From assembly GCF_003334255.1 (NCBI RefSeq), contig NZ_QOWU01000232.1: a stretch of 486 nucleotides of DNA; one strand, 5' to 3'. Of this stretch, positions 1 through 486 are shown piece by piece. The notes under the pieces are model-generated. The model saw only the letters and a list, made by a program, of their open reading frames with translations. It had not been told where the DNA came from and made no database searches. The stretch's first letter is position 1. Every line of letters starts with the position of its first letter. This DNA is from Escherichia coli. Its GTDB lineage: Bacteria > Pseudomonadota > Gammaproteobacteria > Enterobacterales > Enterobacteriaceae. The translations under genes and the position numbers were made by a program.

Positions 1-486
1 GAAGCTGCGCAGCGTTTCCCGGTGCAGGCGGTCGCGGGTGTACTCCACCAGCGGTGTGTCGCCGAGTTTCATGCCTGACAGCCAGCCGCTGCCGTAGGTC
101 AGCCATTCCACGGCGGGCAGGCTGTCCGGTATACAGCGGTTCGCCAGTCCCTGTGCGTTGTACGCATGTCTGGTCTCATGCTGCCAGAGCAGTTCATTCG
201 TCTGCGGATGATGCACCGTCAGGTGTTCACTGGCGAGGCGGCCTTTACTGTCATAACCATAGTGCACCGTCACCCGGTGCCCTTCGCTGATATGGCTGAT
301 GTCTGTCAGCCAGCCGCGTTCGTCATACTGCCACCGCTCTGCGGTTTCGCCATTCACGGTGCGGTGCGTGAGGCGGTCTGCTTCGTCATAGTGCCAGTGG
401 GTGACCAGCCCCTCATCCTCGCTGCGGATAAGTTTGCCGGTCAGGTCGTGGTGATAACGCTGTGTGCGGCCGTCAAAGCCGGTTTC
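1..486 (-). CDS. Rhs-family YD-repeat protein, internal core fragment (partial at both 5' and 3' ends; 162 codons, frame set by position 486)
   Basis: Minus-strand frame beginning at position 486 is open across the entire window, with no stop codon and no start required. The translation contains recurring YD-repeat motifs: RYHHDLTGKLI, HWHYDEADRLT, WQYDERGWLT, HYGYDSKGRLA, YNAQGLA, YGSGWLSG, YTRDRL. These match the Rhs/YD consensus (G-x3-R-Y-x-Y-D-x2-G-R-L) at roughly 21-24 residue spacing. I recognise this from memory as resembling the enterobacterial (E. coli-type) Rhs core; no database search was run, and the specific paralogue cannot be assigned from 162 residues. Confidence 0.9.
25..471 (-). 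repeat. Array of about seven tandem degenerate YD (Rhs) repeat units, defined at protein level within the Rhs core CDS
   Basis: Repeat units in plus-strand coordinates (encoded on minus strand): 427-471 GRTQRYHHDLTGKLI; 367-411 GLVTHWHYDEADRLT; 304-351 GETAERWQYDERGWLT; 232-282 GHRVTVHYGYDSKGRLA; 142-186 WQHETRHAYNAQGLA (degenerate); 64-111 VEWLTYGSGWLSGMKL (degenerate); 25-63 GDTPLVEYTRDRL. Spacing between the Y-D anchor positions is 22, 21, 24 and 31 residues for the first five units. Confidence 0.8.

Follow-up and report, generated by a model that had tools for sequence, protein, structure and literature searches.

A lengthened YD-type repeat, probably one long beta-hairpin, in the shell protein RhsC of Escherichia coli

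The window and its gene

The DNA analysed here, referred to as the window, is a stretch of 486 nucleotides from Escherichia coli, all of which (1..486, minus strand) is an in-frame internal piece of rhsC that encodes residues 667-828 of the 1397 residues of RhsC and belongs to the YD-repeat shell of the protein. Reverse-complement frame 1 is the sole frame open over all 486 bases, with 162 codons and no stop, and its 162-residue product (the fragment) is the translation on which an earlier note on this DNA was based. That note had recognised an Rhs or YD-repeat shell protein and this was borne out, as megablast against complete E. coli genomes found the window to be 100% identical to rhsC of K-12 MG1655 and of many other strains, and full-length RhsC scores 2683.5 bits on the NCBIfam RHS_core equivalog NF041261 (cutoff 2000), with residues 1-1247 covered. 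RefSeq annotation places the match within rhsC (product WP_000015200.1, 1397 aa), with ybfA upstream. Downstream of rhsC in K-12 (L001, 8553-12381) ybfB is followed by an orphan fragment of an Rhs C-terminus that is annotated as a pseudogene, then by ybfC and by transposase remnants of the ISAs1 family, and the architecture of the K-12 rhsC element is classical for Rhs. Megablast placed the window sequence in 3881 of the 5426 complete E. coli genomes, at a median of three places per genome, with the other 1545 giving no match at megablast sensitivity; only one of the 11208 matching places in the collection is plasmid-borne, the remainder being chromosomal.

The YD-repeat model TIGR01643 matches full-length RhsC with E = 9e-41. 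On the fragment itself Pfam RHS_repeat (PF05593) matches residues 14-48 and 54-88 and nothing farther on, and it was the only significant Pfam family found there, BigA_N and DUF6156 at E values of 0.2-0.5 being disregarded. Outside the window lie the Rhs-associated core domain TIGR03696 (RhsC 1170-1247) and the DPxGL autoprotease motif, present as IDPLGLE at 1242-1248, and G+C content falls from about 0.60 in the rhsC core to 0.39 at the variable C-terminal tip past the core. By its equivalog score, its YD repeats, and its core end and tip, RhsC fits an RHS element core protein of the E. coli RhsA-F type. Autoproteolysis, toxin encapsulation and T6SS-dependent delivery have been reported for homologues of RhsC (PMC10684867, PMC8765631, bioRxiv 10.1101/2024.02.26.582050).

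An explanation outside rhsC, in the form of an antisense gene, a small RNA or a DNA repeat, could draw on an open reading frame of 78 codons with a GTG start on the plus strand (54-290), but long antisense frames are to be expected in DNA of about 60% G+C, and the frame on the minus strand has no interruption and agrees with an Rhs core at every level. Rfam gave no match on either strand of the window at E <= 1, Tandem Repeats Finder reported no DNA-level repeat in the window, and a scan of the window for promoters and terminators found no such site. The plus-strand frames, of which the 78-codon one is the longest, were accordingly set aside as antisense noise, neither a promoter-like site nor an Rfam match nor other evidence backing them, and an origin of this kind has next to no probability. 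As there is no tandem repeat in the DNA, the protein repeats must be too diverged to appear at that level.

Spacing and predicted structure of the lengthened repeat

The stretch singled out in the earlier note was placed at window positions 163-231, an interval that on the minus strand, which is the coding strand and was left unstated there, corresponds to RhsC 752-774 and encodes 23 residues. The peptide quoted with it, SEHLTVHHPQTNELLWQHETRH, has 22 residues, and its correct position is fragment residues 86-107, or window 166-231; the longer interval adds A108 and is thus off by one. The tyrosines of the YD-type motifs are residues 33, 54, 78 and 109 of the fragment, so that successive ones lie 21, 24 and 31 residues apart, the last being the distance from the Tyr of YDSKGRL to the Tyr of YNAQGL that had already been reported between the repeats flanking this stretch, and which therefore stands. 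Since the repeats of full-length RhsC between residues 468 and 744 have a period of mostly 20-21 residues, the 31-residue spacing is a genuine local lengthening of about 10 residues, and the motif spacing as such is solid. The segment thus departs from the canonical repeat length of about 21 residues (31 here and 25-32 in orthologues), and represents a longer version of the repeat unit, conserved in this Rhs family.

The features of the segment and its surroundings are as follows, with strands and turns as assigned in an AlphaFold2 (AF2) model.

RhsC 736-744: predicted strand HRVTVHYGY (AF2)
RhsC 744-750, window 235..255, minus strand: YDSKGRL, hairpin turn of YD type in the repeat before, assigned by motif; AF2 gives a five-residue non-strand turn, DSKGR, at 745-749
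RhsC 750-758, window 211..237, minus strand: first arm, predicted beta-strand LASEHLTVH, in which E753 is invariant and H754 and H758 vary (AF2 model residues 703-711, block pLDDT 91-92)
RhsC 759-764, window 193..210, minus strand: tip loop HPQTNE, six residues, predicted as non-strand (AF2 model residues 712-717)
RhsC 765-775, window 160..192, minus strand: second arm, predicted beta-strand LLWQHETRHAY, with the pattern W-x-H-x3-H-x-Y (AF2 model residues 718-728)
RhsC 776-780, window 145..159, minus strand: next YD-type turn NAQGL, a YN variant of YDxxG (five-residue turn in AF2)
RhsC 781-785: predicted strand ANRCI (AF2)
RhsC 794-823, window 16..105, minus strand: conserved block WLTYGSGWL...TRDRLHRE, assigned by conservation and listed for context only, as the marker of positional orthologues

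For the model, RhsC 48-1247 was aligned with 23 homologues and the structure was predicted from this shallow alignment of 24 sequences, which gave a mean pLDDT of 83.7 and a pTM of 0.77, with block values of 89-92 over the segment. Foldseek matched the model to 8cp6, 8qja, 7q97, 8uxt, 7pq5 and 8h8a, with E values from 1e-94 to 1e-51, and the comparison with Tse5 (8cp6_B) gave TM scores of 0.79/0.87 and E = 4e-94 at 32% identity, followed in rank by the Advenella VgrG-Rhs protein (8qja), RhsA (7q97) and Tse15 (8uxt). As modelled, RhsC has the spiral beta-sheet shell of YD hairpins that makes up the T6SS-associated Rhs beta-cocoon fold, known from Tse5, RhsA, Rhs1, RhsP and Tse15. The model contains 87 strands, with a median length of 6 residues and a maximum of 11; those of the flagged segment are 9 and 11 residues long, the latter being joint longest of the 87, and the last residue of the second arm is the Tyr of the next YD-type motif.

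In the Tse5 structure the DxxGR sequence is the hairpin turn (PMC10684867), and this, taken with the strand layout predicted by AF2, argues that the flagged stretch does not interrupt the repeat fold. Very probably, on the combined evidence of sequence and model, it is one unusually long beta-hairpin in the RhsC beta-cocoon that links two ordinary YD-type turns. The earlier description of a "YD-poor" interruption of the repeat register is hence better replaced by one in which these residues would form the arms and tip of a single hairpin joining two genuine YD-type turns. In the canonical 21-residue repeat a YDxxGR turn and the next YD are separated by two strands, each about 6 residues long, with a short distal turn between them; in the long hairpin both strands would be extended by 3-5 residues and the distal turn would be longer, so that about 10 residues would be added and the next Tyr would come 31 residues on. 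On this scheme no repeat would have been lost and no foreign sequence inserted, and the sheet would simply be wider at this point.

The 31-residue gap might instead be thought to hide a degenerate additional YD repeat that has lost its motif, in keeping with the end of the Pfam RHS_repeat matches at fragment residue 88 and with a stretch in which Y-D/G-R-L cannot be found. Against this, 31 is not a multiple of the 21-residue period, two repeats would not fit into the 25-32 residues seen in orthologues, and a further repeat would call for four strands with one more turn where AF2 gives, at high confidence, two long strands and one loop. A decayed repeat is accordingly very unlikely.

Conservation of the long hairpin among relatives

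Homologue searches with the core were dominated by close relatives, the best 120 matches all being at about 66% identity or more. Positional orthologues were instead taken from a search of 1.8 billion representative proteins, in which giant generic YD proteins match the query only as far as residue 85-89; the 26 hits with a best match extending over most of the fragment were aligned, and 21 of them carry the (R/N)DxLHRE block, a small set (n=21) that was chosen by similarity to the same fragment. In 21 of these 21 block-bearing orthologues, down to about 31% identity, the Tyr-to-Tyr spacing is 25-32 and never 21. It is 31 in the enterobacterial RhsA-F type and 28-32 in most other orthologues, with one at 25, whereas five generic YD proteins without the block, aligned at the same place, have spacings of 20-22. 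Sequence alignment to solved chains gave about 25-26 for Tse5, about 31 for the Advenella VgrG-Rhs protein and about 29 for Tse15. Among the best 120 homologues listed, a length of 31 is found throughout the E. coli, Shigella and E. albertii clusters, with GERQTVHHPQTEALLWQHETRHAY as the commonest form. The YNAQGL of RhsC is replaced in orthologues by YDELGN, YDALGN or YSEQGL, YDxxG being found in most relatives at this position, and G779 is invariant.

The comparison with individual relatives leads to the same picture. RhsC has RhsA and RhsB as paralogues; the paralogue clusters have the same 31-residue hairpin, of which GERQTVHHPQTEALLWQHETRHAY is an example, and RhsC differs in having S752 and H754 (ASEHL) where most paralogues have TGERQ, which gives it one His more. 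Tse5 of Pseudomonas aeruginosa (PDB 8CP6), the best match to RhsC in both structure and sequence (E = 2.4e-20 for the fragment), shows the same order of elements, from a YD turn through a long hairpin with W...H.H to WLTYGPGHLHG...ERDALHRE, but its hairpin is 5-6 residues shorter, at the tip, and the Tyr of its next motif is replaced by His (HSHDALG). The VgrG-Rhs protein of Advenella mimigardefordensis (PDB 8QJA) and Tse15 of Acinetobacter baumannii (PDB 8UXT) align through the segment, carry a YGxGH...RDxxHR block downstream and match the fold of the RhsC model with TM scores of 0.74-0.75. They differ from RhsC in their N-terminal delivery domains (a VgrG fusion and an alpha-helical clade domain), and their hairpin sequences are only weakly similar, the W-x-H pattern being partly lost in Tse15. 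Generic YD proteins (giant bacterial proteins, TcB/TcC and teneurins) share with RhsC the 21-residue YD hairpin repeat and the spiral beta-sheet shell but have neither the long hairpin nor the RDxLHRE block.

These alignments bear on the suggestion that some 10 residues were inserted into a regular array in the E. coli Rhs lineage to form a peculiar surface loop, the earlier note having left the choice between ordinary degeneracy of the repeat and a lineage-specific insertion or loop. The 31-residue length of all enterobacterial RhsA-F-type sequences, the poor conservation of the tip (HPQTNE or NPETGE) and the 5-6 residues fewer in Tse5 would all fit such an insertion. However, the lengthening is common to every positional orthologue examined, at about 31% identity and up, and to the sequences of three solved cocoons from Pseudomonas, Advenella and Acinetobacter, and AF2 places most of the extra residues in paired strands rather than in a loop; a lineage-specific insertion is therefore highly improbable, and as far as the alignments go it is largely refuted. 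Gaps and length variation in the alignments concentrate at the tip HPQTNE, whose conservation is 0.1-0.2 over 11 diverse full-length cores, and a variable tip fits the published observation that Rhs cores vary chiefly in loop lengths (bioRxiv 10.1101/2024.02.26.582050). The wide hairpin would then be a conserved trait of T6SS-type Rhs cores in which the length of the tip alone varies, and it would stand directly upstream of the strongly conserved YGSG(H/W)L...RDxLHRE block.

Several homologues have rearranged cores. P0186 and P0195 (E. coli, 1293-1295 aa) have the sequence YDAAGRVIRLTGERQTVHH..., in which the first arm of the long hairpin follows directly on the repeat at RhsC 637, as though recombination between repeats had deleted about five YD repeats in frame. 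The long-hairpin segment is present in two copies in P0151, P0177, P0200, P0203, P0208 and P0225 (1540-1990 aa), proteins of Shigella sonnei or E. coli called 'rhs core protein with extension', whose Rhs cores are partially duplicated or fused.

Histidines and the conserved downstream block

The earlier count of 14 His (8.6%) and 6 Trp in the 162 residues was reproduced on recounting, Trp making up 3.7%. Histidine typically accounts for about 2.3% of residues in E. coli, and the probability of finding at least 14 His in 162 residues is 2e-5 against that background but 1.5e-3 against the 3.44% of RhsC as a whole. The window is the His-richest 162-residue stretch of RhsC, and among stretches of 23 residues the flagged one ranks first; nevertheless, 14 His were reached in some 162-residue window in 3.2% of shuffles of the whole protein and 5.7% of shuffles of the core, and 5 His in some 23-residue window in 18-20% of shuffles. 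The clustering of His within RhsC is thus marginal, and the Trp excess is not significant against the protein's own composition (P = 0.14). The median His content is 3.27% (range 2.4-4.15) for Rhs cores that carry the YGxGHL...RDxLHRE block and 1.09% for 102 other YD proteins of at least 800 residues, or in round figures 3.3% and 1.1%. Of 13 orthologues of at least 800 residues, 12 have more His in the part that corresponds to the window (2.4-7.2%) than in the protein overall, and across 20 orthologues this part contains 2.4-8.0% His, the 8.6% of RhsC topping them all.

Individual histidines differ widely in how far they are retained. In the 21 orthologues His is kept at H769 in 67%, at H773 in 86% and at H821 in 95%, whereas H754, H758 and H759 are His in 19-38% (H754 in 19%, H758 in 38%). 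The last three are variable and specific to the RhsC/RhsA lineage, consistent with neutral drift, and the clustering of the extra, non-conserved histidines of RhsC is statistically weak and not beyond chance. The His excess is therefore partly a family trait. The earlier note had held that the same segment and the same His frequency across Rhs cores would make the stretch a family norm: the segment is indeed common to the homologues, and the His frequency is shared in part, two of the five His of the segment together with H821 being conserved in the family and the level in RhsC remaining the highest.

W767, H769, H773 and Y775 on the second arm have the same strand parity. In Tse5 the Tyr of the YD motif points to the inner cavity, and His, Arg, Trp or Phe are common replacements for it (PMC10684867). 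Because W767, H769 and H773 share their parity with Tyr775 and the YD Tyr faces the cavity, the four residues most likely form a ladder on the cavity-facing side, as part of the inner wall of the shell, although a beta-bulge would alter this assignment. Over the 11 diverse cores the conservation of W767, H773 and Y775 is 0.7, 0.8 and 0.9, respectively.

Invariant columns were finally taken from 11 diverse full-length cores, partial sequences having biased an initial list; in these 11 cores Y797, G798, G800, R817, D818, H821 and E823 are invariant; E753 is invariant in these cores and in the 24 aligned sequences. Among 40-residue stretches of the core, RhsC 789-828 ranks third in conservation, behind the C-terminal protease plug and RhsC 646-685. 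The downstream block is present in Tse5, the Advenella VgrG-Rhs protein, Tse15 and RhsA, and in the form WLTYGSG(W/H)L...(T/E)RDxLHRE it is missing from generic YD proteins. E753 (window 226-228, minus strand) is a Glu three residues past the GRL of the preceding repeat (GRLxxE), with neighbours that vary, and it could pair by a salt bridge with the RDxLHRE block. In the Rhs structure papers that were searched, no role is given to the WLTYGSG(W/H)L...(T/E)RDxLHRE block. P. protegens RhsA has histidines (H530 and H555; PMC8765631) close to its N-terminal cleavage site, which were considered as counterparts of those seen here and rejected, as the fragment aligns to residues 838-956 of that protein.

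It may be asked whether H769, H773 and H821, with W767 and E753, make up a functional site, metal-binding, pH-sensing or catalytic, that serves shell opening, toxin retention or autoproteolysis. The retention of H773 and H821, the invariance of E753, R817, D818 and E823, the roughly threefold higher His content of block-bearing Rhs cores relative to other YD proteins and the standing of the block among the most conserved parts of the shell would all be in keeping with such a site. On the other hand, no result obtained here ties H769, H773, H821, W767 or E753 to an activity, and the known autoproteolytic sites lie elsewhere, at the C-terminal DPxGL aspartyl protease and at an N-terminal site near the plug (PMC8765631; PMC10684867). 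The equivalent residues in Tse5 (W673, H679, H681, H728, R729 and E730) were looked for in the paper on its structure and none is mentioned (PMC10684867), and structural reasons suffice for conserved His and Tyr in the wall of a sheet, where His often replaces a cavity-facing Tyr (PMC10684867). A functional histidine site is thus very unlikely, and its more specific form, in which W767, H769 and H773 with E753 and with R817, D818, H821 and E823 would make up a latch sensitive to pH or metal on the inner cocoon wall, facing the lumen to judge by strand parity, is more doubtful still; if it did exist, such a latch would have a role in holding or releasing the encapsulated toxin.

The window is a piece of a gene that has been known for decades, and the significance of the finding is correspondingly low, the flagged stretch being an ordinary structural feature of which gene and fold are already known. 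The long hairpin, with its W-x-H-x3-H-x-Y arm and followed by YGSGHL...RDxLHRE, nevertheless provides a positional landmark that sets T6SS-type Rhs cores apart from generic YD-repeat proteins, and the conserved His, Glu, Arg and Asp residues of the block offer cheap mutagenesis targets for studying how the Rhs shell opens.
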